A DNA stretch of 63,707 nucleotides from a virus (lineage: Duplodnaviria; Caudoviricetes): positions 1 to 63,707 of IMG/VR virus record IMGVR_UViG_3300017782_000012; one strand, 5' to 3'. How positions within the stretch are numbered: the first letter of the stretch is position 1; every line of letters starts with the position of its first letter. Below are positions 37,406 through 54,407 of this stretch, piece by piece. The notes under the pieces are model-generated. The model saw nothing but the letters and a program-made list of their open reading frames with translations. It did not search any database and had not been told where the DNA came from. Position numbers and translations under genes: made by a program.

Positions 37406-38180
37406 TATAATTTAAATTTAAAACTAACGCTCCATCAGCTGAAGCGGATAAAGACTCACTAACTAAGGAAGCATTAGGAATACTTAATGATTGAATATCA
37501 GCTCCTCCCCGACCATTTATATCAAAACTAATAGTTTTGTTTTCCCTGTTAGTTAAAAAATTAAAAGCTGATTCAGGTAAAGCTTGATCGACTTCTATTT
37601 GAACTTGAGCAGAATATTCTAATGGGGGGATCAACTCTACAGCAACCGCAGATTCTTGGCCAATGCTATACTGAGGTTTTCTTTCCGCTTTGATTGAGTA
37701 ATCAAAACCAATTACACGGTTTGTGGATGAGTTGTCACAGGTTATACTTATAGATCCTTGAGACGGTATATCTATAGAGCTTATGCTTTCAGAAGACAAG
37801 GTTTGACTAGATTGACTGACTAATTCATCGATAATTATGAAATCAGCGTTTACTTTAGGCACAGAACCAACAGCGCAATTAACAGAATAGTTATTTAAGT
37901 AACCACTATCAAACTCATATCGTTGACTGTTGTAAGTCACAGATCCCGAAGTGCTTGATGCTCCTGTCAAAGCTAAAACAGGATCATCATAAATAAGATA
38001 TCTAGATACAGATAAAGTCTGTTGTGTAGCTGCACCAACAGTAGTTAATCCGTTTTTGGACCCTAGTATCTTAGATGTCGTCGCATTATTGGAATATGAA
38101 ATACTAGCGGAATCAACACCAGATAGGTGTTTCCCCGCAACACGGACCTCTACTTCTTCATTTAGTCTTGAATCAAACAT
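37389..38180 (-). CDS. Tail-tube-like/tail tip protein
   Basis: YLNNYSVNCAVGSVP and FDYSIKAERKPQYSIG motifs shared with the tube paralogs; directly after the TMP. Confidence 0.6.
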   Translation of the reverse strand: MFDSRLNEEVEVRVAGKHLSGVDSASISYSNNATTSKILGSKNGLTTVGAATQQTLSVSRYLIYDDPVLALTGASSTSGSVTYNSQRYEFDSGYLNNYSVNCAVGSVPKVNADFIIIDELVSQSSQTLSSESISSIDIPSQGSISITCDNSSTNRVIGFDYSIKAERKPQYSIGQESAVAVELIPPLEYSAQVQIEVDQALPESAFNFLTNRENKTISFDINGRGGADIQSLSIPNASLVSESLSASADGALVLNLNYIGHGF

Positions 38181-41100
38181 TATCTCCTAAGTTGTCCCCC
38201 CAATCTTTTCTCGTCAGCAATGACCTGCTTAACAGCAGATTTGATTTTCTCGGATAGGTTTCTTTGCTCCTCAGAGGCTCCCTGACCACCAACGCTACTT
38301 TCGGACCCGTTAGATCCATTTACAGTGATACTGATGTTACCCGCCGTCTGAGAGTCTTCTGTGGCCCTTATAAGCTCATCTAGTTTAAGAACTAAATCTG
38401 AATTGTCATTAAGCCCTGTAGAGCCAGAATTTAAAGCTTGTAAATTAGCTGCTCCAATATTTTGAGTAGCAGCAGCATTCATTACGAATTCTCCCCCTGA
38501 AAGCATCGCTGGAACAGTATCTACTCCAGAGGTTCTTGGAATAGCCCCCCCTGTCGCCGTGAATTTATAACCTCCAGCACCATATCTGGTAGGATCGGGA
38601 CTAAATATATTAGTAAACGCTCCATCTTCTGTGGCAGCTGCTCCAAATGCCCCTCCCGAAGAAGGCGCTCCAGTAGTTAACATCCCGGCGTAATTACCAG
38701 CTGAAGACCCTATAAGTTTAGACATTCCACTCCCTAACCCCATTGTTGACCCTAATTGGGTAGCCCCATAACCAACAAGAGTACTGATGGCTGCTGAAGC
38801 AAGCATACTACCTAAACTGACTTTTTGGTCTGAAGCTTGTTGTCGTGCGGCTATTTCTTGACCTGCCAACTGGAAAGCTTGCAGCTTCGCGGATTGCACT
38901 TTTTGGAAAGCGGGATTATTTCTGCGGCCAAACCCTGTCATCCTTGCGCTTTCAGATCCCAAGAATGCTCCGTAACCCCTTAAATCATCTCTGCCCATAG
39001 CGAGAGGCGTTTGCGTAGCAAAAGACATTAAGTTTGCCCCTCCTCTTATAGCCCCCGCTCCATTTACTCCCGGAGTCATAAACATACCTTCTTTATCTCT
39101 GACTTGACCTCCTCTAGCAAAGCCTTGAATAGATCCAGAGTTTAACGCTGACATAAAACCAGTTCCGTATTTACTTACGGCTTTTTTATTCATGACGTAT
39201 TCTCCACCCATTAACATGGCTGGCACATCATCTCTACTACCAGAACCACCATTAACTTTACCTCCTTCAGAGAAACCAAGGAACCCTAAAATTCCACCTT
39301 TAGTACTTTCGTTCGCCGCTTGATCCATAAACTTTTGAACAAAGTTCTGAGTCATAGATTGTAAAAACGTATTAGCAGCGTTTAAAAGAGCGTTTTCTAA
39401 ATCTTCAGCGCCTTTTATACCTTCCGCGAAAGCAGAGACTATACCGTCTCTAAATGTTAAAGAGGTTGAAGCCATCTTAGTTAGGAATTCATCATTAATA
39501 ACTTTAGGATCTTTTTTCATATCGTCTAAACGCTCTTGAAAAGTTCTCTCCATCATCCCTTGCTGAATAGCTTGTTCAGGAGTTAAAGATTTATCTGCTT
39601 TTTTTATAAATTTAGCATCTCTAGCTCTTCTAGCGGCTAGTCTACCCAAGCCCATCCTGCCTAAATTTTCAGATTCAAAATTAGCATCAGTAACAGCTTG
39701 ATTCCTTTGAGCTGTGATAGCATTAATTCTATTTTTTAAAAGTTCACTTTCATTTTTTATAAGTCTAGCCCTCTCATCTAGATTTGCTTTTTCTCTCTTT
39801 AGGGTTGCAATCTCCGCTTTCTTAATTTGCAATGTGTCCGGGTCTTTAACGTTAACTAAAGAACCTTCCACAGCTTTTATTACTTTATCGAAGTCTTTTA
39901 TTTGAGATAGACTCGCGTCCACTTCGGCGAACAAAGCTGCGGTTTCATCATCTAATTGAAATGATTGGGCCTTTTTAAGTAGTTCAGCTCTTGAGCTATC
40001 AATTGCGACCATATCGATCCCTGATTGAATACGGTTTTTTCTCTTCTCTGCATCAGCTCTTTGAATTGGATTTAGGTTACCACTTTCTAGTTGAGCATTA
40101 ATACTTGCTATTCGTTTTTTAGCGTCTGTATTTTCTTTATCTATTTGACTGGTAACGCTAAAAGCTGCTGCTGTCGCCTCTTCTCTAGACTTAACTTGAA
40201 AAGCTTTTAAATTTTGTTGAGCTTCCAGATTTAAAACCCTTCTCCGCCCTAAAATTTTATTTCTTTCTTCCTCTTCCTTATTGAGGTCATTCAAACCCTT
40301 GAACTCTTGTTTCAAAAGCTTTAGTCCATCACCTTTTAATTTTAAGTGATCACCTCCGAGTGCTAAAGTATTCTGAATTATTTCTATAAGTTTTTCATCA
40401 GTAAGTTTCCCTGATTCGGATAAATCAAGAAGCTCTTTCTCTTGAGCTATTAAAGCTTTTGTATCAACATCCATCCCATCCAGCTTATCTTTTTGGGCGG
40501 AAAATATATCTAATTTTTTGTTTAAAGTATTTATACTTACCATTTGTAGAGTTTTTGCATTCTCTAGATTTAATATCTCTACCTTCCCTAAAGATCCAAG
40601 AGCTTTAGCCTTGCTTATTTGCATATCTAACTCATCAGTATTAGATTGTCTAACTTTGAAAATTTCTTTAGCTGTTTTTAATCTGGCTTTAGCGATTCTG
40701 ACATCCAGTAATTGCCCAGAGTCTTTAAGTTTTTGATTCTTTTCTTGCTGTTGTTGATCTTTTTGTTTTGAACTCTTAAATCTATCTCTTATTATATCGC
40801 TGATGATCTGCATATTAGCTTCAGAAGCTTTATTTTGCTTGTCTCCTCCAGCAGTTGCAAAAGCTGCAGCTTTTGCTTCTGCTTCGCGGAAAAGCGCAAG
40901 TTCTGTAGTTTTAACAATTCTGGATTGATTCGACCCCTTATCAGTAACTACTTTTCCAGCTTCTATATTTCGTAAAGACTCAATAACGCCATTTATAATG
41001 TTTTTTATTTCCTCTGCACTTTTATTAGCAAGTTCTTTTTGATCTTTCGGATCTAATGATCCTAGGATAGAAGCGTTAATGAAACGCTGTTGAGTACTTT

Positions 41101-44100
41101 CATTTTTACGTAACTCATCAACAAAATTTTGGTCAGCGTTTTTTCCTCCCATCGCAGCGATTCTATCTAAATCCAAACCTTCAAAACCATCACCACTTCC
41201 ATAATTAACAGTTCGTCCTCCAGCTTTAGTTGAAAAAAGTCCTCCTATACGATTATATAAGTTTTTTTCGCTATTGCTCAGCTCTCGATTTTCTATAGCT
41301 CCTCCAGAGAATTGCTTTACTGTGGAGTTCATTTTTTCAGAAAAAGCTTCTTGTGGGGTTAATTTCATAGCCTCCTCAATAGTTTTCCCTGATTCTCTAG
41401 CTGATCTAGCTGCGTTTATATAATCTATAACGCCCGTATTATTCCCTGACCCAGTCAATAAATTAGCTTCTGCCTTATCAGCTAGTTTCCCTAAAGCTGA
41501 AGCCGCTTTTTCAGCTGGTGTTTTAACTAGACCTAAGAACTTACCTACTGATCCTATAATATCAACCCCGAAACTTTTTAACAAAGGATTTAAAAGAGTG
41601 AATGCTGTAATAGCCGTACCTATAACAGGTAAAAACCTCATAAATCCTCCAGCTATTTTACCGATAGTTGGAGCTAATTTAGCCAAACCACTCGATAATG
41701 GCCCTAATTTAGAAACGCCTTTGGATAACATGTTTCCTTTTCCAGCGGCAAAACCACCAACACTCGCCGTTACACTTGTAGCTCTAGTGGCTGCTACAGC
41801 TTTAGATCCCAGCCCCCCCAAAGGCATATTAAACGCTTGCATAGTCATGAAAACCATCAAAGCGCTCATAGCTCCTTCAGCTAGAGCTGAAAAACTCTTG
41901 GTTAATCCTGTTGAATCTTTAGACGCTTCGTTTAGGCTAGATCCGAATAAACTTAAACCCATTTGCACAGCAAAAAACTTAGCTGTAAGACCATCCATAG
42001 ATTTTGCTGTTTTATTATTCGCATCTGTAGCTTTTTTAGCTGAATCCGCAAACGCTTTAAAGTTTGTCTGTTGTATACCAGCTCCACTAACAAAATTAGG
42101 TATAAATCCTCTAGCCGCAGGGATAGCTCCGGTAGGCTCATCACGGGTATTCGTTACAGCGAGACCCATTGGATTTTGCGAATTACGAAGCTTACCACTT
42201 TGATTAATTCTAATTTGACTGACAGGTAAGCCAGCAGCCTTCTCTCTGCCGACAGCTTCTTCTAAAGCTCCGCCCGCGAAGTTAGGTATGTATCCTGTCG
42301 CAGCTCTAAATTTAGGAATCACCTTTTTTATTTGAGAGATGAGAAAATCTCTTTGGCTGGGATCATTGAAAGCTTTACCTATAACTGTCCTTACAGCTTC
42401 GTTAGAGGCTGTTCTTTTTCCATCTGATTTTTGAAGTGAAGGAGTGAACTTAAATGTGTTTTTAAATGCTTTACTAGGTCGCCCCGCACCTTCTTCAAAG
42501 TCAAAAGGTTTCTGATCATCTTTCTCATCTTTAAAAGCTCTTAGTCCCGAAGCTTTCTTTGTAATAAGTCTAATCGCAGATTCAAATATGCCACCTTCTA
42601 CAGAAGAGCTAAAAAGGTTAGCCCCGCCACCTTGATTTTTTATCTTTTTTAACTTATTATTTAATTCTTTGGCATCATTACCCTGAAAAGATGTACCAAG
42701 AATATTAGCACCTAATGTCGCAACAGGATTTATGAAAAGATCTGCTATTTGATTTTTAAATTTAGTTTTTTTATCTTTTAGATTATCAGAATGTAAACTC
42801 CTAACTTGAATACCTTTAAATTGTATATCAGTTATCCCCGCTTTTGCAGCTGATTTAGCTAGAGGAGAGCTTAAAAGAGAGGGCGATGTTTTAGAATTCC
42901 CTGTTTTCTTTGAAGAAAAAAGAGACGCCACTCCATACCTATCAGCTGGCACTATTAGAGTTTTAGATCCTTGGTTCTTGTTTCTAAATTGGTTGATTTT
43001 ATCTTTATCTGCTTGACTAGCATTTCTAAAAGATTCAGCGGCTTTGTTAGATTTAAAAGTCCCATCCGCTTTCATATAGTTTCCGGGTCTCCTAATAATA
43101 TCTTGGATACTCGCAAAGTTTGGAATATAACCTGAAGCAGCTCTGACTTTTTTAGCGTTTGCAGGAAGACCCATTGAAGAAGCCATGTTTTGGTTAAATA
43201 TAGCATCTCCACCGTTAGCATAATTAGGGACAATATATTCGCTGCTATTAGCTACCATAGTTCCCCTCTTGCCCCCACCAAAAGCAAAATTAGGGATAAC
43301 TACGGGTTTGGCAGAAGCAGGTGCGCCACCCACTCCACGAGATATATCAGACTTCTCTGCCCCAACAGGTAAAAAGCCATCAGCAGCTTTTTTTCCTCCA
43401 AATGGGTTCTTCGAAGTCATAAACGAAGGCACACTCGTCATAACTCTGGGAGCGATAGTTGCAGCGATACCTTGCATCTTAGTCATCACAGCTAATTGCT
43501 CATTAAGAGCTGTGGTAAAGAATTTAGTTTGTAAAACTTTTTTTTCCTCGGCAGAAATACTTAATCTTTCGATATCTAATATCTTTTGTCTTATAGTCCT
43601 ATCATTGATTAAAGAAGAAGCTATTTGACCTTGCAATTTAGCTTGCCTTTCTGCAGCTTTATTAAGACCAAAAAATACATTTAGAGATTTAGCTCCAAAT
43701 TTTGCAAAATCTATCAGGAGCTTTCCAACTACAGCTAAAGCTAAAGCTAATCCGGGGCCAGAAATTATATTAGAAATACCTTTTATTAATCCTTTTGCTA
43801 GGTCTGACCCAAGACCTTCACCATCTAAAACGCCTTGTATATTACTTACAATACTATTGAAGAACCCTATAATACTCCTTAAATTATCTGTAACCCCAAT
43901 TTCACCTAGAGTGTTAGCTAACTCTTTAAGATTCAACGTCGCGGTATTTATAGCTGAAGATAAAGTCTTATTAAGAGCTTCGTTCCTCATGTAAGCTTCA
44001 TTAGTCGCGCTGAAAGATGTACTCGCTACCTCATTACTTCTAGAGATCTTTTGATTGTAATCTTCAAGTAAAGCTAAGAACGGAGCGATTTGAAATTTAC

Positions 44101-45037
44101 CAACAAGATTATCAGCTAAATTCACTCTAGACGCTTGATCCAGTTTTGCAAATGCAGGAGCTAAATTTTCTATGACTTTATTCGATGATAAAACCCTACC
44201 TTCTAAATCCGTAACTTGAACCCCCAAATCTCTTAAAGATCTTAATTTTTCAATATCTTGAATTCTAACGAAAATCGTTTTTAAGGAGTTGCCGATAACA
44301 GCTCCACCCCTTGCGGTTTTTTCTTGTAAGGCAGATATAATACCAACTAATTCGTCGAATTGCACACCTGTAGAAACGGCTACCGCTCCAGAACGCTTAA
44401 TACCTTCGATTAGGTCTCTATCCGATACAGCAGCGCTTGCGGCTGCAGCAGAGATTTTGTTAAGCACTTCAGCACTAGTTAATCCTGCGCTTTTAAAAGA
44501 GTTTATCGCGGCTGTTAATCCAGATACAGAATCAGCAGCGTTCATTCCAGAAATACGAGATAAAATTAGAGCATCATTTAATCTTTTGGTAACCTGTTCA
44601 GCTTTAAGACCTTGGCGAGATAACTCCAGAGCGGCTTCGGCAACATTAGCGAATGATTGTTCTGTATTTCGCGCTATATCAAATATATTATTTTTAAATG
44701 AGTTTAATTGAGATTCACTCTGTTTAAGTATAGAATTTATATTAGCTAAGCTCTTCTCGACTTCGATAGTCGTAGTCACCAACTCTTTCATCCCTCTCGT
44801 CACGGCAGCTATAGTGCCTACAGAAGCGCCAAAAGCTAACACACGAGCGTTAGCAGCTGCCATTGATTTAGTGAAATCGTCTGCCTTACCAGTGAGCCTA
44901 CCTAAAGGTTGAGATAGAGATTCAATGCTCTTAGCTCCCGGCCCCATATTAATCTTGAGGCTTTTCCCAGCTTTCTGGGCAGCTTGTTGAATACTTTGTT
45001 CTAAACCTGTTTGTACGACTGGGACTTTAATTGGCAT
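38180..45037 (-). CDS. Tail tape measure protein (TP901-like core) with inserted domains
   Basis: 2285 aa; AALELSRQGL, ARGGAVIGNSLKTIF core; Ala/Gly-rich helical and hydrophobic stretches; duplicated C-terminal DxVPAMLxGGE(Y/F)VMN; SD AAGGAG. Confidence 0.9.
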   Translation of the reverse strand: MPIKVPVVQTGLEQSIQQAAQKAGKSLKINMGPGAKSIESLSQPLGRLTGKADDFTKSMAAANARVLAFGASVGTIAAVTRGMKELVTTTIEVEKSLANINSILKQSESQLNSFKNNIFDIARNTEQSFANVAEAALELSRQGLKAEQVTKRLNDALILSRISGMNAADSVSGLTAAINSFKSAGLTSAEVLNKISAAAASAAVSDRDLIEGIKRSGAVAVSTGVQFDELVGIISALQEKTARGGAVIGNSLKTIFVRIQDIEKLRSLRDLGVQVTDLEGRVLSSNKVIENLAPAFAKLDQASRVNLADNLVGKFQIAPFLALLEDYNQKISRSNEVASTSFSATNEAYMRNEALNKTLSSAINTATLNLKELANTLGEIGVTDNLRSIIGFFNSIVSNIQGVLDGEGLGSDLAKGLIKGISNIISGPGLALALAVVGKLLIDFAKFGAKSLNVFFGLNKAAERQAKLQGQIASSLINDRTIRQKILDIERLSISAEEKKVLQTKFFTTALNEQLAVMTKMQGIAATIAPRVMTSVPSFMTSKNPFGGKKAADGFLPVGAEKSDISRGVGGAPASAKPVVIPNFAFGGGKRGTMVANSSEYIVPNYANGGDAIFNQNMASSMGLPANAKKVRAASGYIPNFASIQDIIRRPGNYMKADGTFKSNKAAESFRNASQADKDKINQFRNKNQGSKTLIVPADRYGVASLFSSKKTGNSKTSPSLLSSPLAKSAAKAGITDIQFKGIQVRSLHSDNLKDKKTKFKNQIADLFINPVATLGANILGTSFQGNDAKELNNKLKKIKNQGGGANLFSSSVEGGIFESAIRLITKKASGLRAFKDEKDDQKPFDFEEGAGRPSKAFKNTFKFTPSLQKSDGKRTASNEAVRTVIGKAFNDPSQRDFLISQIKKVIPKFRAATGYIPNFAGGALEEAVGREKAAGLPVSQIRINQSGKLRNSQNPMGLAVTNTRDEPTGAIPAARGFIPNFVSGAGIQQTNFKAFADSAKKATDANNKTAKSMDGLTAKFFAVQMGLSLFGSSLNEASKDSTGLTKSFSALAEGAMSALMVFMTMQAFNMPLGGLGSKAVAATRATSVTASVGGFAAGKGNMLSKGVSKLGPLSSGLAKLAPTIGKIAGGFMRFLPVIGTAITAFTLLNPLLKSFGVDIIGSVGKFLGLVKTPAEKAASALGKLADKAEANLLTGSGNNTGVIDYINAARSARESGKTIEEAMKLTPQEAFSEKMNSTVKQFSGGAIENRELSNSEKNLYNRIGGLFSTKAGGRTVNYGSGDGFEGLDLDRIAAMGGKNADQNFVDELRKNESTQQRFINASILGSLDPKDQKELANKSAEEIKNIINGVIESLRNIEAGKVVTDKGSNQSRIVKTTELALFREAEAKAAAFATAGGDKQNKASEANMQIISDIIRDRFKSSKQKDQQQQEKNQKLKDSGQLLDVRIAKARLKTAKEIFKVRQSNTDELDMQISKAKALGSLGKVEILNLENAKTLQMVSINTLNKKLDIFSAQKDKLDGMDVDTKALIAQEKELLDLSESGKLTDEKLIEIIQNTLALGGDHLKLKGDGLKLLKQEFKGLNDLNKEEEERNKILGRRRVLNLEAQQNLKAFQVKSREEATAAAFSVTSQIDKENTDAKKRIASINAQLESGNLNPIQRADAEKRKNRIQSGIDMVAIDSSRAELLKKAQSFQLDDETAALFAEVDASLSQIKDFDKVIKAVEGSLVNVKDPDTLQIKKAEIATLKREKANLDERARLIKNESELLKNRINAITAQRNQAVTDANFESENLGRMGLGRLAARRARDAKFIKKADKSLTPEQAIQQGMMERTFQERLDDMKKDPKVINDEFLTKMASTSLTFRDGIVSAFAEGIKGAEDLENALLNAANTFLQSMTQNFVQKFMDQAANESTKGGILGFLGFSEGGKVNGGSGSRDDVPAMLMGGEYVMNKKAVSKYGTGFMSALNSGSIQGFARGGQVRDKEGMFMTPGVNGAGAIRGGANLMSFATQTPLAMGRDDLRGYGAFLGSESARMTGFGRRNNPAFQKVQSAKLQAFQLAGQEIAARQQASDQKVSLGSMLASAAISTLVGYGATQLGSTMGLGSGMSKLIGSSAGNYAGMLTTGAPSSGGAFGAAATEDGAFTNIFSPDPTRYGAGGYKFTATGGAIPRTSGVDTVPAMLSGGEFVMNAAATQNIGAANLQALNSGSTGLNDNSDLVLKLDELIRATEDSQTAGNISITVNGSNGSESSVGGQGASEEQRNLSEKIKSAVKQVIADEKRLGGQLRR

Positions 45038-45070: not shown

Positions 45071-46060
45071 TTACACATCATGACCTGCTAATCTCATCAT
45101 TTGTTTCATATCTAGTTTGCCGCCAGCTTCTTTAGCGGCGTCAGATAATGATATAGAATTACCGCTTTTAGATGTTTTTTTAATATCATCTGCTGTAGCC
45201 CCAAATACAGCCGAAGCGTCTGCATCATCTTTAACGCCTCCATTATTTGAGTCTTTATTCCTTTGGTTCTCTGAAAAAGCCATCAACTTATCTGGATCTT
45301 CTTTTATATTATCAGGAATATCATCAGTATATTGAAAAATGCTATGGAAGACCCTGCCATACATTACTGTTTTCATTTGATATACAGATAAATTTATTAT
45401 AGCTTTACCATAAAAATCCCTAGGGTTTTCACAATTAGCGAGATACATACTAAAAAACGGTTTTAAAACCGCATGTTTGATATTCTCTTCTGACATTTTA
45501 TCTGTCACAGCCCCCAGTCTGATATTCAATTCTGCTATTTCATCAGATTCCAATTCACCGAACTCATCTTCCGTATGGAGGTTCTCTTCAAATTTAAGAT
45601 CCTTAAAAAAACAAAACCTCAACATCTCATCTGCAGATCGTCGGTTAGCGTATGCTTCAGCGGTTAAACCAACAACCTCAGCTCTTTGATTTTTTAATTT
45701 GTATAACTCCAACAGCTTTTCATCAATAGTTTTCTGTAGAGCTTCTTTTTTCGAGGGTAGAAATAAAGATTGTTTAGTTTTTTTTAAATTTTGAGTCTCA
45801 GTTTCTAACGAAGCTATTTCCATATCGTCAGACTCCTCCCATAAACCCTCTTCTTTTACATAATCAGACCTTTCTTCTTCAGTATCTATACCTTTAGAGA
45901 TCGCTAGATCTTTGTAGCGCTCGTAGTATGTATTGAGATACTTCTGATCTCTTAAGTTTATATGTTTAACGAATACGTCCCGACCTTTGAAAGTCGAGAC
46001 GCTATACCCGTCAAAAACTTCTCCTATTAGAGAAATATAGAACTCGTCACTATAGCTCAC
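45071..46060 (-). CDS. Putative tail assembly chaperone
   Basis: Immediately upstream of the TMP; acidic and helical; resembles its upstream neighbour. Confidence 0.5.
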   Translation of the reverse strand: MSYSDEFYISLIGEVFDGYSVSTFKGRDVFVKHINLRDQKYLNTYYERYKDLAISKGIDTEEERSDYVKEEGLWEESDDMEIASLETETQNLKKTKQSLFLPSKKEALQKTIDEKLLELYKLKNQRAEVVGLTAEAYANRRSADEMLRFCFFKDLKFEENLHTEDEFGELESDEIAELNIRLGAVTDKMSEENIKHAVLKPFFSMYLANCENPRDFYGKAIINLSVYQMKTVMYGRVFHSIFQYTDDIPDNIKEDPDKLMAFSENQRNKDSNNGGVKDDADASAVFGATADDIKKTSKSGNSISLSDAAKEAGGKLDMKQMMRLAGHDV

Positions 46061-46805
46061 CTTTTTCTACCTGTTCCATCAACTCTTCAAACTCTTTTTG
46101 AGATGAAGCTTGGTTGTAGAACCAGAAAGCTAATGTGGTTGAGACTTGTTTGATTATTTTTTGATAAACCTCAGAGTTTTCCTCCTCTTTATCATAATAA
46201 TCCTCAAGTTTCGCTTCGTAATCTAAACCTTCAAAATAAGAAACAGGATCTTCATCCTCCTCCTTTTGGATATAAGTTAGATTCAAAGCGTACCAGAGAA
46301 GCAGTTTGTTTTGCGCTCTTACGTCTGCAGTGTGTTCAAATAGACCTTGTAGATTCGTTTCTACCTCAACTAACTGTCTTTTTACTTCAGCAATTTTTTC
46401 TTTGACTTCTTCTAGCCTATCTTTCTGAACTTTTGTTAATTTAGTAGCTGAATCAAGTCTGACATATTCATTTTGATATTCTAAGATCTGCTTGTAGAGC
46501 TTCCCATATTCCTTCTGCCCTTCCTCAGTAAAAGCTCCTCCTGTATCATCATACTTCTTGGCGAGCATAGCTTTTGTCAGAATGCCTTGTTTGACACACT
46601 TACTCATTTCGATTGTATATTGAAGCTCGCCATCTTCAAGTTCGCGACGAGAAGGTTTCTTAATTTTTACTTCGATTGGGGTTTTTTCCTTAACCTTCTT
46701 TTTTACGATAGTAGTCTCACCTGTTTTTTTGTTCTTACGGGAAGTCTCTTTTTCCACTTCACGAACCTCATCCACAGTGAACTGATATAATAATTTTAAA
46801 TCCAT
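46050..46805 (-). CDS. Putative tail assembly chaperone
   Basis: Position before the TMP; coiled coil; start placed at ATG 46805, after the upstream stop. Confidence 0.5.
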   Translation of the reverse strand: MDLKLLYQFTVDEVREVEKETSRKNKKTGETTIVKKKVKEKTPIEVKIKKPSRRELEDGELQYTIEMSKCVKQGILTKAMLAKKYDDTGGAFTEEGQKEYGKLYKQILEYQNEYVRLDSATKLTKVQKDRLEEVKEKIAEVKRQLVEVETNLQGLFEHTADVRAQNKLLLWYALNLTYIQKEEDEDPVSYFEGLDYEAKLEDYYDKEEENSEVYQKIIKQVSTTLAFWFYNQASSQKEFEELMEQVEKGEL

Positions 46806-46809
46806 ATGC

Positions 46810-47097
46810 CTACTTAAATATAAATTCAACTCTGTAATTTTCTATTTCATTCTTGACATTTCTTAAACTTTCATTACCGAAGTCTAAAATCCTCTTCCTG
46901 ATCCAAGATACTTTATCTGGGGTAAAATGATCTGCAGCCTTTATAACTGGGTGGTATTCCTTAGGTATACCCTCGTAAAGCTTGGCGTAATGAAAATCGT
47001 GGTCTTTTTTCATGTCTTCCACCATAATTAGCATCATTTTGAATAGTGAGGAGACCTCATCACCAGACCTTTGATTTAAATTTTTTTTAGCATTCAT
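46810..47097 (-). CDS. Hypothetical protein
   Basis: 95-aa ORF heading the TMP operon; TATAAT and AAGG upstream. Confidence 0.7.
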   Translation of the reverse strand: MNAKKNLNQRSGDEVSSLFKMMLIMVEDMKKDHDFHYAKLYEGIPKEYHPVIKAADHFTPDKVSWIRKRILDFGNESLRNVKNEIENYRVEFIFK

Positions 47098-47140: not shown

Positions 47141-47605
47141 ATGGCTGGCTTTTTATCTACAAACATGGAATCGAGTATCAACTCAATGTACGATACCCTT
47201 CATGAAACTTTTGCTCAAACTATAACTGTTTTCAAGAATTCTAAGAGGACGGTAGTTTCCACGAACTCAAAGTATAATAATATTTACGGTAGAACCAATA
47301 CAGGTTCGAAATCAAGCGTAGAATATACCACGGAATCCCAGTCTTTCGCGGCTAGAATCTATTATATTGATATGGATGAAGAGTATCTTGATAACGGAGC
47401 TAACCAGCAAGGGACTCAGAATAAAATTGTCCTGCCTGATGGTTCGGTTAAAATGATTGTTAAAGCTGATGCTTATAATTATATCAAAGAGGCTAGAAGG
47501 ATAGAATTGGATGGGATTAGATTCGCGATCAAAAGCGATGGATCTCCTTCAGGTCTGACCACTAACATTTTTTACACTTTCTTACTTACACCAATAGATG
47601 AGTAA
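47141..47605 (+). CDS. Putative head-closure (stopper) protein
   Basis: Size, beta-rich pattern and first position in the neck-to-tube block. Confidence 0.5.
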   Translation: MAGFLSTNMESSINSMYDTLHETFAQTITVFKNSKRTVVSTNSKYNNIYGRTNTGSKSSVEYTTESQSFAARIYYIDMDEEYLDNGANQQGTQNKIVLPDGSVKMIVKADAYNYIKEARRIELDGIRFAIKSDGSPSGLTTNIFYTFLLTPIDE

Positions 47606-48177
47606 TGGCTATTCTACCTAGAGATGTTCAGCTTGCTTTAGAAAAACAAGCCCCAAAACAATTAAGAAGACCTTTCGAAAAAGAATTTAAAAAGGATTTC
47701 TTAAGAGTTAAAGATCAAATGATCAAAGAATTTCTATCTCACCCAGTGACTATAGAATTATCTATGGGGCCGTCAGGAAGTAATATCAGCAATACTTTGG
47801 GTGGTGTTTCTAATCTTTTCGCATTTATAGGGTTCGATTCTTCAGATGATCCGATTACACCTATTTTAGATATTTTGCAAAATTTAGATTATAATTATGT
47901 AGGAGAGGTCAAAATTGGGGTAAACTATTATATAAACATACCCGAAGCTGCAGACATTTTTAAAATGACTCCAATGCCTTGGGCTACAGGAAGAAGTTGG
48001 GCGCAAGGGATAGAAACGGGGATATCGGGGCTTGGCTACTTACTTAGGAAGAATGATGGACGATCTGGGAAAGCTATCCAATCCAGAAACAAAGTAAGAT
48101 CGGGCAAGTTCCAAAATACCAGTTATATTTCTGCACTAATTAAAAAATACAAAAAAGAATTCAATAATATAAAATGA
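47605..48177 (+). CDS. Putative neck/tail-completion protein
   Basis: Position in the neck block; TAATG coupling. Confidence 0.45.
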   Translation: MAILPRDVQLALEKQAPKQLRRPFEKEFKKDFLRVKDQMIKEFLSHPVTIELSMGPSGSNISNTLGGVSNLFAFIGFDSSDDPITPILDILQNLDYNYVGEVKIGVNYYINIPEAADIFKMTPMPWATGRSWAQGIETGISGLGYLLRKNDGRSGKAIQSRNKVRSGKFQNTSYISALIKKYKKEFNNIK

Positions 48178-49004
48178 AAGAACAATTCATACATACATTG
48201 ACCAATTCATTCATGCTTTGGTTTGATAACTTTTTGTTAAAAAAGGGAGATGCTTATTCCAACCAAACTGGACGGTTTTACCATACTCCAGACGGTTTTC
48301 TCCAGAATTCTTATATTCCTTTCTCTAGCCCATATAAACAATTTGTAAGCGATTCTTCAATTACTGGAGCTACCCTACCTACGGGGATAGCTGGCAATTC
48401 TCATTATATTGATTATGATAATGGGCGCATAGTGGAAACAGGAAGCAATTATACATCAAGCTCAACAATCACAGGCACGTTCGCAGTAAAAGATTTCAAT
48501 ATTTATTTCACTAACGAAACCGAAGATGATCTTATCGTAGAAAAGAAATTTGAGTTAAATTCCAGAATCCCGACATACAACGATTCTGGTATAGACCCTT
48601 ATGATCAGGTAGTTCCAGCTGTTTTCTTATCTACAGCTACAATGAAAAATGACCCTTTATCTTTTGGTGGAGAAGAGCAAACTACCGTTCGGGCTAATGC
48701 TGTAGCCCTCTCAGATGACCCTTACAAATTAGATGGTATCTTATCTATATTTGGGGACTCACACAATGAAGTTTTTTATCCCATTCCAATGAGTGGGCAT
48801 CCTATGGATGAATACGGCGATTTAAAAAATGGCTCGTATTCATATTCAACGCTATCGAATGAGTATAGCGACAAAAAACCTTTTTTAGTAGATAATGTGA
48901 CTACTTCAAAATTAACAGACAAAGCGAGGAAATCCTTAGCTAATGATCTCTATGTCGGATTCATTGATTTTGATATAAAGATACACAGGCATAGATTTTC
49001 TTAA
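48174..49004 (+). CDS. Putative tail terminator protein
   Basis: VPAVFL...FGGEE pattern; immediately before the major tube gene. Confidence 0.45.
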   Translation: MKEQFIHTLTNSFMLWFDNFLLKKGDAYSNQTGRFYHTPDGFLQNSYIPFSSPYKQFVSDSSITGATLPTGIAGNSHYIDYDNGRIVETGSNYTSSSTITGTFAVKDFNIYFTNETEDDLIVEKKFELNSRIPTYNDSGIDPYDQVVPAVFLSTATMKNDPLSFGGEEQTTVRANAVALSDDPYKLDGILSIFGDSHNEVFYPIPMSGHPMDEYGDLKNGSYSYSTLSNEYSDKKPFLVDNVTTSKLTDKARKSLANDLYVGFIDFDIKIHRHRFS

Positions 49005-49031
49005 TTTCACATTATTCAAAAATAAATGTAA
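49004..49031 (+). promoter_or_regulatory. Bipartite element ATTTCACA-N15-TGTAA
   Basis: Same sequence and spacing as 53611-53638 on the minus strand; TGTA lies 22 nt before ATG 49053. Confidence 0.6.
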
Positions 49032-49052
49032 ACAATATAAAATTAACCTATT

Positions 49053-50180
49053 ATGGCCAGAAACAGAGTAATTTACCAATCGGAATCCCTTTACGTTAGT
49101 GAGGGGTTAAGTTCAGCTACCGCTGTAAAACACGAACAATTGACACGAGTTCAAAGTGCAAACTATAGCTTCTCGATCAACAGACAAGATATTAATGAAT
49201 TTGGATCGCTAGCGCGTTTAGATTCCATTATTATGGAGGCTCCAACAGTGAGCTTAGACTTTTCATATTATCTCACTGAGGGTTTCAACGAAAAAGCTTT
49301 AGGGTTTTCGCTTGCTGATAACCTCAACACCCAGTTTCTTGCTGGGCATATGGGGCAGACTTCAGGCAAGAACTTCTTCATCACAACAGCTCCAGAAGGA
49401 CAAGATGCTAATGGTGTGGGAGGAACTACTGCTGGAAACAAGGTGGAAGCTGTCATCGGCTTTGGAAATGCTTTCTTAAGTGATTATTCCGTAGAACTAG
49501 CTGTGGGTAGTCTACCGACAGCTTCAGTATCGCTAGAATGCGCTAACATGCGCTCTGTAGCGGGTTCTGATATTTCTGGTACTGCTGGATTAATATCAGG
49601 TATGGATAACCCAGCTGTAGACATCACTAATGGAGTTGATATCGGCGGGGAAGTTGTTCTACCTGCCCATAGTATTTCTGGAGAAGAGTCTATCTCTGCC
49701 CTACAGCCCGGAGATGTTACAATTAACATCGAAGAATTAGATGGGGTTACATTTACTGATATCTCAGGGGTTGATGATGAAAACGCAATTAACATTCAAA
49801 GCGCTTCATTAAGCATTCCTTTAAGTAGGTCGCCTATTGATCGACTTGGAACTCGTTTCCCTTATTCTCGCAGTGTTGACTTCCCACTTAATGCTACCTT
49901 GAGTGTAAACGGAGTGGTTAGTGATGTCCAAGCTAAAAATCTTAGCAGCATTTTAACCACGAACTCCAAGAAGAATATAACCTTGACCTTGAAAAGTGGA
50001 TCTACTGAAAAGTTGGTATACAGACTTAAAGGATGTCGTGTGGATAGCGAAAGCTTCTCTTCTAGTATTGGCTCTAATAAGAGTGTCGATATTGTATTCT
50101 CTACTCAGGTTGGAGGAACAAACGATACATCCAATGGGGTATTCGTATCAGGAGATAACGGAGACACCTTGTTCGCTTAA
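49053..50180 (+). CDS. Major tail tube protein (putative)
   Basis: MARNRVIYQS start, Ser/Thr/Gly-rich beta protein, own promoter-like element and strong terminator. Confidence 0.7.
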   Translation: MARNRVIYQSESLYVSEGLSSATAVKHEQLTRVQSANYSFSINRQDINEFGSLARLDSIIMEAPTVSLDFSYYLTEGFNEKALGFSLADNLNTQFLAGHMGQTSGKNFFITTAPEGQDANGVGGTTAGNKVEAVIGFGNAFLSDYSVELAVGSLPTASVSLECANMRSVAGSDISGTAGLISGMDNPAVDITNGVDIGGEVVLPAHSISGEESISALQPGDVTINIEELDGVTFTDISGVDDENAINIQSASLSIPLSRSPIDRLGTRFPYSRSVDFPLNATLSVNGVVSDVQAKNLSSILTTNSKKNITLTLKSGSTEKLVYRLKGCRVDSESFSSSIGSNKSVDIVFSTQVGGTNDTSNGVFVSGDNGDTLFA

Positions 50181-50255: not shown

Positions 50256-50717
50256 CTAACTTTCTCCAGTGAGGATAACAGCATCTATCCCTCCAACCTG
50301 TTGAGGTGCAGCTTCATATATATTATATTTAGCCACTAATCCGTCTAGATTAGCCTTAGAATCGTTTGCTAGCCCTCTATAGACCTTAGCCACCTCATTA
50401 CGGTTAACGAACGTCACAGACGATTCTCCGTCCTTTAAAGATAATATCTTATCGTCGTTAGCCGCCGAAGCGATTCCTCTAAGCGCGTTTCGCGTTTGTT
50501 TATTATAGTAATTATGCAAATAAAGCTCTTTGTGAATAGATTGAGCCTCAATATCAAGAGCTGCCCCAGCTCCACTAAAATCCTGATAAATTAAATTATT
50601 TAATTCTCCCAAATTATTCTCAAGCCAAGCTTGTATAGAGGCTGATGTATTTACATTAGAATCACTATCGAATTCATCCGAAAATATTTCTGCAGCTAGG
50701 TCACTGATAACACTCAT
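50256..50717 (-). CDS. Putative head-tail adaptor protein
   Basis: Helical N-terminus with a SLKDGESSVTF beta hairpin; downstream of the capsid gene. Confidence 0.5.
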   Translation of the reverse strand: MSVISDLAAEIFSDEFDSDSNVNTSASIQAWLENNLGELNNLIYQDFSGAGAALDIEAQSIHKELYLHNYYNKQTRNALRGIASAANDDKILSLKDGESSVTFVNRNEVAKVYRGLANDSKANLDGLVAKYNIYEAAPQQVGGIDAVILTGES

Positions 50718-50726
50718 GCTTTATAT

Positions 50727-50732
50727 TACACT
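50727..50732 (-). promoter_or_regulatory. AGTGTA motif
   Basis: 9 nt before ATG 50717. Confidence 0.7.
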
Positions 50733-50739
50733 ATTTATT

Positions 50740-51072
50740 TTACTTTTCTCCCCACTTCTTTTTTTCTTTTTCGTCTTGAGAAATTTTACTGACAGATTGG
50801 ATCATATCTTTAATTTCTTCAGAAGCTTCAGAAAACATAGGGGTCGGGGCTGGAATAGGAGAATTCCTAGATTTATACTCTCGGAAAGATTTTTTTATAA
50901 CCTCTCTCATCAGCGCTCGTGAGTGTGTAGGGTTTAAACCTAGCTTAGAAGCTAAACCTCTAAGCTCTGACCTCCCATAAGTTTTCAGTTTGGCGTCTAA
51001 TTCCTCCATAGTTTCAGCGCCAAAATAATTATTCTCGCCGTTACCATATGATACGTTTTCAAAATTGTCCAT
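50740..51072 (-). CDS. Hypothetical protein (Rho-N/SAP-like helix pair)
   Basis: LKTYGRSELRGLASKLGL; AGTGTA upstream. Confidence 0.65.
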   Translation of the reverse strand: MDNFENVSYGNGENNYFGAETMEELDAKLKTYGRSELRGLASKLGLNPTHSRALMREVIKKSFREYKSRNSPIPAPTPMFSEASEEIKDMIQSVSKISQDEKEKKKWGEK

Positions 51073-51081
51073 ACAGTATTA

Positions 51082-51087
51082 TACACT
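51082..51087 (-). promoter_or_regulatory. AGTGTA motif
   Basis: 9 nt before ATG 51072. Confidence 0.7.
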
Positions 51088-51105
51088 TAATGAGGATAAA
51101 TAAAC

Positions 51106-51139
51106 AAAAAAAAGAGAGCCGCCCCGGAGGACGACTCTC
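51106..51139 (-). terminator. Intrinsic terminator after the major capsid gene
   Basis: Minus strand GAGAGTCGTCC-TCCG-GGGCGGCTCTC-T8. Confidence 0.85.
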
Positions 51140-51157
51140 AAATCAAGTTTTGCTATA

Positions 51158-52264
51158 TTAAGCAGCGTTGATGATAGTAGCGGTTAATGCACGATTATCA
51201 AGAACCATGCGACCCTCTTCGATAGAGCCAAAGTAACCGATCTTCTGTTGGCGAATGCTATACTGATCGTCAGCGATCAGGTTGAATTCTCCACCAGAAT
51301 CTTCGTCAACTGCTACAGCGCGAATCAGAGACTCACGAGAGCGATCCAAACCAATAACGAGGTCATCAGCGGTAGTACTGAAAGTAACACCGTCATGAGT
51401 ACCAGAGAAAAGTTTAGTGAAACGCTTACCAGCACCAAGCTCAAGGATCTCAACGATGGAGATACCGTAGAACTCAGGGAGACCTGCGCTGTTGTAAATG
51501 CTCATACGCATTTCGTCAGGAGCGGTGTGTCCATCTTTAACAGCAGAAGCGATAGGCGCTGCACTGGTATTGATTGGATTGTAAGCCATTGCGCGAAGCT
51601 TCTCAACAGTTTCAGGAGAAACAATGAGATCAGTAATGCCACGACCTTGTCCAGAGGCAGGAGTACCGCCAAGGAAAGAAGTGTTGATACGCTTAGCAAG
51701 AGTCATCATTTTGTTGATGTCGTCGAGAACGAAGCTGTTAGTGCTGCTGTTAGCACGAACGTGTCCAGTTCCAGCGGTAGAAGCATCAGCAAGAGATCCC
51801 ATTACCAATGTAGCGGAAGTAGTTTCCTGCTTAGCAAGAATTTCTTGAGCTGCACGGGAGAAGGTCTTAGAGACAACATCCATGCGGGACTTAGCGGCGT
51901 AACGACGATCAAAGCTGACTGCGGTATCCAAGCTGTAAGTGGCAACCTTCATCTCTGATGCAGTAGGAAGCACTTGGTTAGTTGGAAGTCCACCAGCGTG
52001 AGACTGACTGTAAACCTTCACGTAATCTTCGTCATTGATGTCATAATAGAGATCAAGAGGGATCGAAGGATTGTCGTCAGCGTTAAACTGAAGAGTAGTG
52101 AAGAGATTCGAAATAGTAGGAGCGTTATTGATAACCTCTGCAAGCACAGGTCCAATAAACTCAGCGAGAGCTACTTGAGCTTCGTAAGCGACAGTGCGAT
52201 TACGAGAAGCCATAGCTTTCACAAGCTCGATTTGTTCTGGAGTTCTTTTTAAAGTGATTTTCAT
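51158..52264 (-). CDS. Major capsid protein (HK97 fold, putative)
   Basis: 368 aa after the scaffold and decoration genes; DLIVSPE, KIGYFG..EEG..VLD.RA C-terminus; followed by a terminator. Confidence 0.8.
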   Translation of the reverse strand: MKITLKRTPEQIELVKAMASRNRTVAYEAQVALAEFIGPVLAEVINNAPTISNLFTTLQFNADDNPSIPLDLYYDINDEDYVKVYSQSHAGGLPTNQVLPTASEMKVATYSLDTAVSFDRRYAAKSRMDVVSKTFSRAAQEILAKQETTSATLVMGSLADASTAGTGHVRANSSTNSFVLDDINKMMTLAKRINTSFLGGTPASGQGRGITDLIVSPETVEKLRAMAYNPINTSAAPIASAVKDGHTAPDEMRMSIYNSAGLPEFYGISIVEILELGAGKRFTKLFSGTHDGVTFSTTADDLVIGLDRSRESLIRAVAVDEDSGGEFNLIADDQYSIRQQKIGYFGSIEEGRMVLDNRALTATIINAA

Positions 52265-52283
52265 TTATGTGATTCTTTCTATA

Positions 52284-52904
52284 TTAGTTGAATTTGAAGA
52301 CAAGATACTCACCACCGAACTGATCAGCGACACCGTTTTGAGTGGCGCGGCTTCCTGTTCCAATAATCGTTCCGAAACATGCTACATCAGTTGGAAGGCA
52401 TCCAGTAACAGTTCCACCAGCAGCAGATTTGATACCGCTACCAATAGCGATATCGCCACCAAGATCACCTTGGAAAGCAGCACTAGCTAAAGTAAAGATG
52501 CCTTTAGTAGCGACAGGGACAGCTTCTCCGGGGAGAGCAGACTGAAGCTCAGCAGCTTTTTGAGGATTGTAGAGAAGTTTCTCTCCGTTTTCGTCATTTT
52601 TAGCGGTTTGGAGAAGGGTGATTCCAAGAGGAATATCTCCAGAAGCAGCAGGTTCAACCTGCAGACTTACTTTAGGGTATTGATTACGCCCAACATGAGG
52701 GTAATCAGTTTTACCTAAATAGCTGTCTGTAGCATAAGCGACAGGATCAGCAGAGAAGTCACCAGCAGAAACCTTCACGAAAGTTCCAGCATCGCCAGAA
52801 CCCGCAACGGTTGTGTTATCGAGTACCATTCCATCGGCAACACGATAGAGATTGACGACATCTTGGTCGTCATATTGTCTAAAAGGAAGAATTTTGAGTC
52901 CCAT
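52284..52904 (-). CDS. Capsid decoration/cement protein (putative)
   Basis: Gly/Ala-rich 206-aa protein between scaffold and MCP; GEAVPVATKGIF. Confidence 0.6.
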   Translation of the reverse strand: MGLKILPFRQYDDQDVVNLYRVADGMVLDNTTVAGSGDAGTFVKVSAGDFSADPVAYATDSYLGKTDYPHVGRNQYPKVSLQVEPAASGDIPLGITLLQTAKNDENGEKLLYNPQKAAELQSALPGEAVPVATKGIFTLASAAFQGDLGGDIAIGSGIKSAAGGTVTGCLPTDVACFGTIIGTGSRATQNGVADQFGGEYLVFKFN

Positions 52905-52924
52905 AGTATTATATTTTGTTTAAG

Positions 52925-54406
52925 TTAAGATATTTCGATGTTCTCACGAGAGAACGCTTTTTTAAATTTATCAACGAGGTTTTCTTCTTTCGAAGCGATA
53001 GCCTCATTATTGTTAGAAAGGTCGGCATCGACCTGCTTAGCATTGTCAAGAGCTTCTTCAACATCAACTTCTTCCGAAGCTTTAGCGACCCTCTTGGCAA
53101 CCTCTTCATCAATACGAGCTTGGATTTCAGCTTCAAAAGCTTCTTTATTTTCCTTACTCTTATGCTTCCAGAGGACTTCAAGCTTGTCAGAGAAAGAAGC
53201 GAACGCTTCCTCGGTCTCTTCGATAGACTTGACCTCTTTCGCAAGAAATTCACGATCTTCATCAGCGAGTTCAAACTTAGAGTCAAGTTCGTCCATGCGA
53301 GTATTGAAACGAGCTACAGCTTCTTCAGCTTTTTTCTCGTTTTCAAAAACGTTGATTCGATCATTAGATTCTGCCAGTTTGCTTTCAAGCTCAGCGACAG
53401 AAGCTTTAAGATCTTCGTATTCTTTCTTGGCTGCTTCTTGCTCGCTCAGAAGAGCTTCTTTTTCTTTCAAAAACTCTTCGTTCTTTTGACGAATCGCTTC
53501 AGAAAAAGACTGAGTCATAGAAGCTACAGCCTCTTCACCGATTTTTTTCTCGACGAGAAGCTCCTTTAGTTCATTAACAATGTTTTCCATAGCTATATTC
53601 TTTTCTTTTGTTACAGTTTTTTTAATTTTTTGTGAAATTTTATCTTCGCTATCATCTTTGATAGATTCGGCGTTTTCCTCTTGATCTTTATATATACCTT
53701 TTACATCAGCAGCGGGATTAGAAGTGAAACCAATACCCAAAGGATATATCTTTCCGGTGATTAATCGGTATACAGGTTCACCTTTTTCAGTCTTCCCAGA
53801 CCCTCCATATGCTTTTAGGCATCCATTCAATTTTTTAATTTCTCTTGGATCTTCAACTCTGGTAGCTTCACTCAGCTTTTCACTTCCGACAGCTAACACA
53901 TAACTGGAGAATCCAACTTCCCAGCTCGCAGATATTTTTTTGTAGTATGATTTATCTTCAGGATCAGTAGATTTTTCTATAAGTTCCGCAAAAGATTTGT
54001 TAGCCGAACGATAAACAACAGCTCCTAAAGCTATATTAAAAGGATCTTTTTTATTTTCTATTTTATCATTAGATAATATTTTATTAGATCCATACTCGCT
54101 AAACCCAGCAGTCACAATATGCCCGACAATCTTATCTTTATTATGCTCTATGTTGGTAGGCTTATGAATAAATTGATCGTTATACTTTAAGGCTGTGCTG
54201 GAATCAATACCGTCACCATTCCTATTAAAAACATTAACAACCGCAGCGTTAAAAGAAACGCCTAGTAAATCAACATTCTTTTCAAAGTCTATGTCTTTTG
54301 GGACAAGAGAAGAGAGTTCGCTTAACGAAGCCTCAGAGATAAACTCATCATTAATTTGATGAGCGAAGATTTCAGATTCAAAAGAGGTTGTATACTTATA
54401 AGGCAT
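52925..54406 (-). CDS. Prohead protease-scaffold fusion
   Basis: N-terminal NRNGD, NIEH...IVGH, SASWE..F, GFTSNPAA; C-terminal acidic coiled coil; start at ATG 54406 with AGGA SD. Confidence 0.75.
   Translation of the reverse strand: MPYKYTTSFESEIFAHQINDEFISEASLSELSSLVPKDIDFEKNVDLLGVSFNAAVVNVFNRNGDGIDSSTALKYNDQFIHKPTNIEHNKDKIVGHIVTAGFSEYGSNKILSNDKIENKKDPFNIALGAVVYRSANKSFAELIEKSTDPEDKSYYKKISASWEVGFSSYVLAVGSEKLSEATRVEDPREIKKLNGCLKAYGGSGKTEKGEPVYRLITGKIYPLGIGFTSNPAADVKGIYKDQEENAESIKDDSEDKISQKIKKTVTKEKNIAMENIVNELKELLVEKKIGEEAVASMTQSFSEAIRQKNEEFLKEKEALLSEQEAAKKEYEDLKASVAELESKLAESNDRINVFENEKKAEEAVARFNTRMDELDSKFELADEDREFLAKEVKSIEETEEAFASFSDKLEVLWKHKSKENKEAFEAEIQARIDEEVAKRVAKASEEVDVEEALDNAKQVDADLSNNNEAIASKEENLVDKFKKAFSRENIEIS
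53611..53638 (-). promoter_or_regulatory. Internal bipartite element ATTTCACA-N15-TGTAA before in-frame ATG 53590 (scaffold start)
   Basis: Matches 49004-49031; TGTA lies 21 nt before MENIVNELKELL. Confidence 0.55.
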
Positions 54407-54407
54407 T

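Follow-up and report, generated by a model that had tools for sequence, protein, structure and literature searches.

The stretch of DNA analysed here, referred to as the window, comprises the 63,707 nucleotides of the IMG/VR record IMGVR_UViG_3300017782_000012 (Duplodnaviria; Caudoviricetes). We focus on the tape measure protein (TMP) that it encodes, and on an array of short peptide linkers and a 273-amino-acid (aa) domain, hereafter the cargo domain, inside this protein. The TMP gene (P0001) occupies 38180..45037 on the minus strand as a stop-free open frame of 2285 aa. Its product is a TP901-type TMP, since it matched PF10145 at aa 122-313 (E 2.7e-26, 93.1 bits against the curated cut-off of 33.2), TIGR01760 tape_meas_TP901 at aa 76-406 (E 1.8e-36, 125.9 bits against a cut-off of 28.8) and eleven PHROG tape-measure families. 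PF10145 was the sole Pfam match over its curated cut-off, a row for PF22568 falling below. Two hydrophobic stretches frame the array (aa 554-982). Hydrophobic region 1 lies at 43688..43789 (minus strand, aa 417-450), where the 19-aa Kyte-Doolittle mean rises up to 2.04, and hydrophobic region 2 at 41555..41896 (minus strand, aa 1048-1161), with Kyte-Doolittle windows above 1.3 and a peak of 1.69. Among 224 full-length relatives, 219 have a hydrophobic segment that precedes the first strong motif by fewer than 250 aa, 145 have one that follows the array by fewer than 300 aa, and 11 have one inside the array.

The linker motif occurs in full form as copy 3 (AAS-GYIPNF-A, 43115..43132, aa 636-641), copy 4 (AAT-GYIPNF-A, 42278..42295, aa 915-920) and copy 5 (AAR-GFIPNF-V, 42092..42109, aa 977-982), all on the minus strand. 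Weaker copies stand upstream at 43220..43378 (minus strand), namely GFLP (aa 554-557), VVIPNFAFGGG (from aa 579; core VVIPNF, aa 579-584) and YIVPNYANGG (from aa 601; core YIVPNY, aa 601-606); among the matches listed, they are kept as PVVIPNFAFGGG / EYIVPNYANGGD in nearly all relatives. Copies 4 and 5 are separated by a conserved 56-aa spacer (42110..42277, minus strand), and spacers of 48-72 aa close the array in most relatives. These counts are far above chance: G[YF]IPNF was seen 3 times against 4.9e-5 expected from the composition of P0001, and [IV]PN[FY] 5 times against 0.020 expected, a number reached in 0 of 20,000 shuffles. In the six-frame translation of the whole window, five of the six [IV]PN[FY] matches fall in the TMP frame. 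Separately, a (P/S)MGL(A/P) element (42154-42171 and 43159-43176) was seen 19-21 residues ahead of linker copies 5 and 3, so that the repeated unit may exceed the ten-residue motif.

For the search of relatives, a word-indexed search with aa 545-990 scored 7998 candidates and retained 918 proteins at E<=0.001 (120 listed), and an exhaustive HMMER search of 1.84 billion representatives returned 815 at E<=0.001, 596 at <=1e-10 and 222 at <=1e-30 (150 listed). The family thus counts 815 representatives at 50% identity (E<=0.001). Both match lists and the window's own TMP made up our working set of 247 proteins, nearly all relatives being TMP-sized proteins of marine metagenomes. All 247 proteins carry the motif, the relatives among them being those of the matches listed, with one strong copy in 3 proteins, two in 19, three in 150, four in 57 and 5-12 in 18. 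The consensus, A-A-x-G-[YF]-[IV]-P-N-F-A, rests on 1185 instances from 272 proteins, collected with an anchor loose enough to leave the Asn position free; the column frequencies were A 53%, A 64%, Y/F 75%, I/V 93%, N 91%, F 86% and A 66%. More distant relatives (L028, L030, L048) have degenerate flanking forms, such as EIPNFAGG and AAGHIPRFAKG. The codons of the motif vary synonymously, both within the window and across loci, and the window's copies, compared as DNA over stretches of up to 39 nucleotides, are 72-80% alike, indicating that selection acts on the peptide. For the same reasons, the motif was ruled out as a DNA-level recombination site. A prepilin-peptidase-like or signal-peptidase-like site at the motif was dropped as well, since the motif lacks a Glu at +5 and a hydrophobic core ahead of it.

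Between copies 3 and 4 lies the cargo domain (aa 642-914, 42296..43114, minus strand), a basic alpha/beta domain of 273 aa with an isoelectric point (pI) of 10.2, which contains VEGGIFES, KPFDFEE and KSDGKRT in that order. From the 247 proteins, 300 inter-motif segments of at least 90 aa were cut and clustered by BLAST (E<1e-10, at least 70% cover), and the 205 members of one linked cluster were aligned with MAFFT. Six columns hold while nearly all others vary: G815 (also numbered G174) is kept in 204 of the 205 homologous segments, F/Y818 in 197, E819 (E178; 42581-42583, minus strand) in 203, D846 (D205; 42500-42502, minus strand) in 204, and both D/E872 ([DE]231; D872 at 42422-42424, minus strand; 143 D and 62 E) and K874 (K233; 42416-42418, minus strand) in all 205. 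The Glu and the Asp are 27 residues apart, and the Asp precedes the (D/E)xK by 26 aa in the window and by 22 aa, counted by eye, in one relative with another domain subtype. In a separate alignment of 103 sequences (A2), the mean column identity was 15%; the Lys was the invariant residue within the domain, and the nearly invariant columns were G, F, E, D and one Phe. The domain has no conserved His, Cys or Ser, and its pI exceeds 9 in 204 of the 205 copies.

AlphaFold2 models of the domain were built from two alignments. With 34 sequences, the predicted local distance difference test (pLDDT) was 81.6 and the predicted template modelling score (pTM) 0.66; with 103 sequences, these values were 83.5 and 0.73, and most of residues 60-280 were above 90. 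Both models agree on one alpha/beta globule, in which two beta hairpins are followed by a long helical hairpin, the Glu helix, the Asp loop, the (D/E)xK strand and two closing helices. As modelled, the Glu would lie within helix 182-198 and the (D/E)xK within strand 241-247. A sequence-only reading of the window had called the host protein a TMP, placed these motif copies, listed EGGIFE, KPFDF and SDGKR in order, and taken the inter-repeat segment for basic and globular-looking; all of this is borne out by the profile matches, the motif statistics, the position of E819, D846, D872 and K874 with respect to these peptides, and the models.

We then considered how the segments between motifs are arranged across the family. 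A hidden Markov model (HMM) of the domain matched 234 of the 300 inter-motif segments, and the per-protein counts based on segments cover 240 TMPs; this count was preferred because hmmsearch of whole TMPs under-reported the domain (209 of 247). The domain is present once in 231 of the 240 TMPs, twice in 1 and not at all in 8. Further modules of at least 120 aa, unrelated to the domain, occur in 34 of the 240 TMPs, with 1-4 per protein. According to the architecture strings, the motif stands between every pair of modules, in a beads-on-a-string manner. The order of modules also changes: module M1 (156-178 aa) precedes the domain in P0042, P0196, P0197, P0202, P0220 and P0226 and follows it in P0116, P0212, P0221 and P0240, and modules M6, M7 and M8 change place as well. 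The longest arrays belong to 25 giant TMPs of 4041-4992 aa, which carry 7-16 motifs and up to ~ten modules, with the domain present in 15 of the 25. The extra modules gave no Pfam match in the 18 multi-module relatives scanned, and no peptidase or effector family was among them. We conclude that the linker motif marks module boundaries, and the combination of a modular, motif-delimited array with an invariant tetrad of catalytic type is solid. It was also observed that, in the giant TMPs (P0254-P0278), the motif recurs far downstream around segments of ~800 aa and ~1240 aa with constant spacers of 69-85 aa, so the motif punctuates the whole TMP and extends beyond the module array.

The comparison of closely related TMPs revealed where variation is concentrated. 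We compared 18 relatives with the window's TMP region by region, and the ranges given here come from the 12 full-length ones with another domain subtype. Identity was 66-81% for aa 1-540, 71-89% for aa 541-641 and 71-91% for aa 915-990, while the domain itself (aa 642-914) was 17-25% identical. Single-linkage clustering at 40% identity split 233 domain copies into 43 clusters. Therefore, the domain is a swapped, hypervariable island between conserved flanks, in which the putative active site stays constant. Such an island with a constant active site is usual in proteins of host-parasite conflict, and a role that is structural alone would hardly account for the pattern. High variability is seen in the coiled-coil part (aa 991-1700) too, so the variability of the domain is not decisive by itself. 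One relative, P0083 (1521 aa, on a 109-kb contig), has 37 aa between linker motifs in the slot of the domain and is a natural in-frame loss of it; this protein is also far shorter at its C-terminal end.

These results bear on further claims of the sequence-only reading. It had expected inter-repeat domains to vary in type and number among related TMPs, and this pattern was found, in order as well as in type and number. It had also taken the repeats for possible recombination boundaries; at the DNA level this does not hold, given the varying codons and the 72-80% likeness of the copies, and at the protein level the flanks do bound a swapped island. Nor is the segment an ordinary extended helix, or an invariant one devoid of conserved catalytic residues, as the model is alpha/beta and the domain varies around fixed residues.

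Searches by tblastn with the motif cluster and with the domain gave no match in 50,697 deposited phage records, and no model of Pfam, PHROG or NCBIfam covers the domain family. The whole TMP matched 162 deposited phage records, solely through its first ~400 aa and at an identity of at most 26%. In 185,579 species genomes, the scan turned up 2 loci (L062 and L063). Both lie on contigs of metagenome bins that carry the labels Verrucomicrobiales and Flavobacteriaceae; the contigs probably belong to phages and were placed in bacterial bins, so they offer a weak clue to the host. A profile search for free-standing homologues yielded 7 proteins of 126-622 aa among the 7998 scored candidates, which we take for pieces of TMPs, and no separate family was seen. 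In the full-text literature open without subscription, neither the motif nor a TMP with a nuclease-type domain was found described, and GYIPNF, GFIPNF and YIPNFA occur in 0 papers.

The TMP gene sits within a tail module, upstream of minor tail genes. Downstream of it on the coding strand are open reading frames (ORFs) matching the minor tail families phrog_290 and phrog_14, a match to PF05939 just under the curated cut-off (E 2.2e-9, 38.1 bits against 39) and, after the minor tail ORFs, a lectin-fold virion protein. Other genes of the window encode ribonucleotide reductase, PhoH, the single-stranded DNA-binding protein SSB, the large terminase and an ERCC4-type nuclease, and we read the source as an uncultured marine siphophage of lytic type. 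The ERCC4-type nuclease (PF02732, phrog_3490; 58622-59638, minus strand) has an N-terminal C2H2 zinc finger, and its gene adjoins that of the large terminase. Directly upstream of the TMP gene are two minus-strand ORFs of 329 and 259 aa (45071-46060 and 46050-46829), which overlap by 11 nucleotides and match neither a PHROG nor, above its curated cut-off, any Pfam family; it is in this slot that siphophages encode a pair of tail assembly chaperones through a programmed frameshift. Four plus-strand ORFs of 154, 190, 276 and 375 aa (47141-50180), with no PHROG or Pfam match, interrupt the otherwise minus-strand structural region. Between the terminase and the tail genes, the presumed head genes (50256-56811, minus strand; ORFs of 153-658 aa) likewise have no PHROG hit and none in Pfam that passes its curated cut-off, which places the entire virion module very far from the phages described so far. 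Near the C terminus of the TMP, a second repeated peptide, VPAML(M/S)GGE(Y/F)VMN, has two copies (aa 1938-1950 and 2175-2187; 39188-39226 and 38477-38515, minus strand), each preceded by an (F)xxGG stretch; it differs from the linker motif.

In our reading, the cargo domain would be a metal-dependent phosphodiesterase or nuclease, with a site of PD-(D/E)xK type on a divergent or new scaffold. Its conserved residues match the E ... D ... (D/E)xK order of the PD-(D/E)xK superfamily, and to our knowledge a set of E, D and (D/E)xK with no His, Cys or Ser leaves few enzyme classes, of which PD-(D/E)xK alone has this exact order. A G-x-x-F-E on a helix resembles enzymes of the Hjc, Mrr and YraN types, and the YraN sequences that we fetched show G-x-x-G-E ... 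D ... E-V-K. As in such nucleases, the predicted G-x-x-F-E helix is followed ~27 residues on by an Asp flanked by hydrophobic residues and then by a predicted (D/E)-x-K strand, and the domain is basic and diverges fast outside its site. Unlike in these nucleases, there is no fold match, no match to a YraN profile and a non-canonical strand order in the domain model, and the spacing from the Asp to the (D/E)xK is 26 aa in the window's domain against ~13-15 aa in YraN. Since no known relative was found, the nuclease call rests on the motif, its secondary-structure context and the basic charge. The sequence-only reading had gone further and expected a PD-(D/E)xK restriction-like fold. The residues that it picked stood, being the invariant ones among the 205 homologues, and membership was confirmed by no fold, profile or family search; the Foldseek comparison that it proposed returned no known relative of the domain. 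We give about an even chance to the prediction that the domain works like a phosphodiesterase of PD-(D/E)xK type, and it is not filed here as a member of that superfamily. It is a candidate for a new fold or for a strongly rearranged PD-(D/E)xK.

The array shares one aspect with each of the four nearest known systems and differs from each. The nuclease superfamily is one of them, and the TMP of TP901-1 (PMC5099701) is another. Both TMPs have an N-terminal TP901 domain, a hydrophobic region 1, an intervening segment, a hydrophobic region 2 and a long helical part. The intervening segment is 129 aa in TP901-1, whereas that of the window's TMP has ~600 aa, five linker motifs and the 273-aa domain, and its relatives reach ~2000 aa and many modules between the hydrophobic regions. 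The 11/18-aa Trp/Phe repeats of TP901-1 differ from the linker motif. The third system is that of TMPs with enzyme domains delivered at infection, as reported in PMC12617516: the Rpf-like motif of TM4, the C-terminal peptidase of T5 pb2 and the muramidase of phiIPLA35; T5 pb2 and lambda gpH are also described there as undergoing cleavage. Unlike those muralytic TMPs, the window's domain carries residues of nuclease type, matches no muralytic family or fold and, besides being hypervariable and bracketed by linkers, belongs to an array whose modules are shuffled. Polyvalent proteins (Iyer et al. 2017; PMC5512222) are the fourth. These, too, are long polypeptides made up of several unrelated modules that change quickly, and the prediction is that they accompany the DNA into the host and come apart when deployed. 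They are not TMPs, the word 'tape' occurring 0 times in that paper, and their hallmarks are known effector domains and a zincin-like peptidase. The modules of our array differ in having no Pfam match, and their separator is a short peptide motif.

Taken together, we tentatively favour a mechanism, whose chance we put a little below even, in which the TMP bears an expanded modular array and its nuclease-type module is ejected, folds in the cytoplasm and acts on DNA. According to PMC5099701, the TP901-1 TMP has two hydrophobic regions with the 129 aa between them predicted to be cytoplasmic by TMHMM, and its N terminus is placed at the head end and its C terminus at the tip. By analogy, the array may be an expanded version of this predicted cytoplasmic loop, in which short peptide linkers would separate autonomously folding modules; in the window's phage it would hold one module, aa 642-914. 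The lumen of the tail tube is ~4 nm wide. A folded globule of 30 kDa on each of three or six parallel chains would be too big for the tube, so the modules would be carried unfolded or loosely packed. The TMP would leave the tail tip-first and ahead of the DNA, its hydrophobic regions would enter the inner membrane, and the array would fold on the cytoplasmic side as the TP901-1 analogy suggests. There, the domain would cut nucleic acid, be it host DNA, the DNA of competitors or rival elements, or a defence component, and the linker may either be cut to free the modules or dock the assembly chaperone or the tube. According to two sources, TMPs form a trans-envelope conduit and some carry enzymes (PMC12617516), and injected DNase domains of polyvalent proteins are discussed in roles against host DNA, rivals and defence (PMC5512222). 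A study of Ur-lambda describes the TMP as a trans-envelope channel of six copies.

Several results weigh against this mechanism. The whole TMP is basic too (pI 8.6-10.2 by region), so the charge of the domain is weak evidence for a nuclease. In the model, the Asp falls in a loop with isolated beta-bridges, which is the least confident part of the core (blocks 201-220, pLDDT 72-84), the topology appears to depart from the canonical alpha-beta-beta-beta-alpha-beta, and the (D/E)xK strand is predicted to pair with the N-terminal hairpins in a non-canonical strand order. When the domain profile was compared by hhalign with a 30-sequence YraN/UPF0102 alignment (A3), the sole PD-(D/E)xK family compared, the probability was 0.12%. 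Nothing consistent was obtained for the domain from Pfam (a single protein, then 34 and 103 members each, E<=10); for the 103 members, 38 families were matched, and none of the 25 listed was matched by more than one member. PHROGs, NCBIfam and PADLOC contained no known relative of the domain, and neither PDB sequences (phmmer and two profiles) nor the ESM Atlas gave anything consistent. Fold searches with the two models (Foldseek PDB, VIA-align wide, pdb_via and BFVD) returned no PD-(D/E)xK member, their match lists being filled by the helical hairpin. As for location, the second hydrophobic region was found in only 145 of the 224 relatives at the threshold used, and the TP901-1 topology is predicted by TMHMM and is no experimental result.

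Three other explanations were weighed. The array may be purely structural, which we consider unlikely: the linkers would dock the tail assembly chaperone, the tube or the terminator, the modules would serve for packing or for setting length and do nothing once ejected, and the conserved charged residues would stabilise the fold or an oligomer. It fits this view that hydrophobic and aromatic TMP repeats have been tied to chaperone binding in TP901-1 and p2 (PMC5099701), that the motif of the giant TMPs also punctuates far C-terminal parts and is therefore not solely a bracket for cargo, and that no enzyme family was matched in Pfam, PHROGs, NCBIfam or PADLOC. However, a partner-binding domain should co-vary slowly, and this one is swapped between TMPs that are otherwise ~80% identical. 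The putatively buried E/D/(D/E)xK set, invariant at a mean identity of 15%, is typical of catalysis, P0083 is a natural TMP that lacks the domain, and a folded globule would be at odds with the usual coiled-coil TMP in the tube.

A different role for a catalytic domain would be that of the array's own processing enzyme, an autoprotease or lyase which cuts the A-A-x-G-(Y/F)-I-P-N-F-A linkers and frees the modules and TMP segments. Parallels exist in the cysteine protease domain of MARTX toxins and the metallopeptidase of polyvalent proteins, and several virus coat proteins cleave themselves at Asn-Phe or Asn-Ala bonds. In its favour, the domain is the one module that is near-universal and present in single copy (231 of 240), the rest being variable, the linker Asn is nearly fixed (91% of 1185 instances), and polyvalent proteins are predicted to carry the peptidase that cuts them (PMC5512222). 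We nevertheless find this explanation improbable, because no peptidase site is known that consists of E, D, D/E and K and lacks Ser, Cys and His, a housekeeping domain is not expected to be the most variable island of the TMP, 8 of the 240 TMPs and 10 of the 25 giant ones retain motifs and modules with no domain, and GHIPRF replaces the Asn form around the domain in L028, L030 and L048. Least probable in our estimate, and very unlikely, is an enzyme that acts on the envelope, such as a new peptidoglycan or polysaccharide hydrolase or lyase with Glu/Asp catalysis in the periplasm. In its favour, a Glu on a helix followed by an Asp is found in lysozyme-type enzymes as well, and peptidoglycan hydrolases are, according to PMC12617516, the sole enzymes so far shown inside TMPs (TM4, T5 and phiIPLA35). 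Against it, no lysozyme, transglycosylase or M23/NlpC peptidase was found in Pfam, PHROGs or NCBIfam for the TMP or the domain, and the fold searches brought up no such enzyme either. The invariant Lys in the (D/E)xK strand is foreign to these enzymes, and the cargo domain lies between the hydrophobic regions instead of at the tip-proximal C-terminal end, the place of known muralytic TMP domains.

TMPs are known as rulers and as conduits for DNA. If the favoured mechanism of an ejected nuclease-type module is true, such an enzyme and, in relatives, up to ~ten uncharacterised modules would arrive at the membrane's inner face before the genome does, which would be a new route for host takeover or counter-defence before gene expression. 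A wider proposal, which we regard as possible and rather doubtful when its three parts are taken jointly, is that in this large lineage of marine siphophages the TMP serves as a scaffold for effector delivery, a string of ejected modules freed or positioned by the linker; that the near-universal module is a virion-delivered nuclease with a fold unseen in solved structures; and that the ~40 other module types are early-acting proteins of host takeover or anti-defence. There is a real chance that the enzyme-bearing TMP represents a new class of effector-delivery scaffold, and its modules are dark matter with an experimental handle, namely four residues and one linker.

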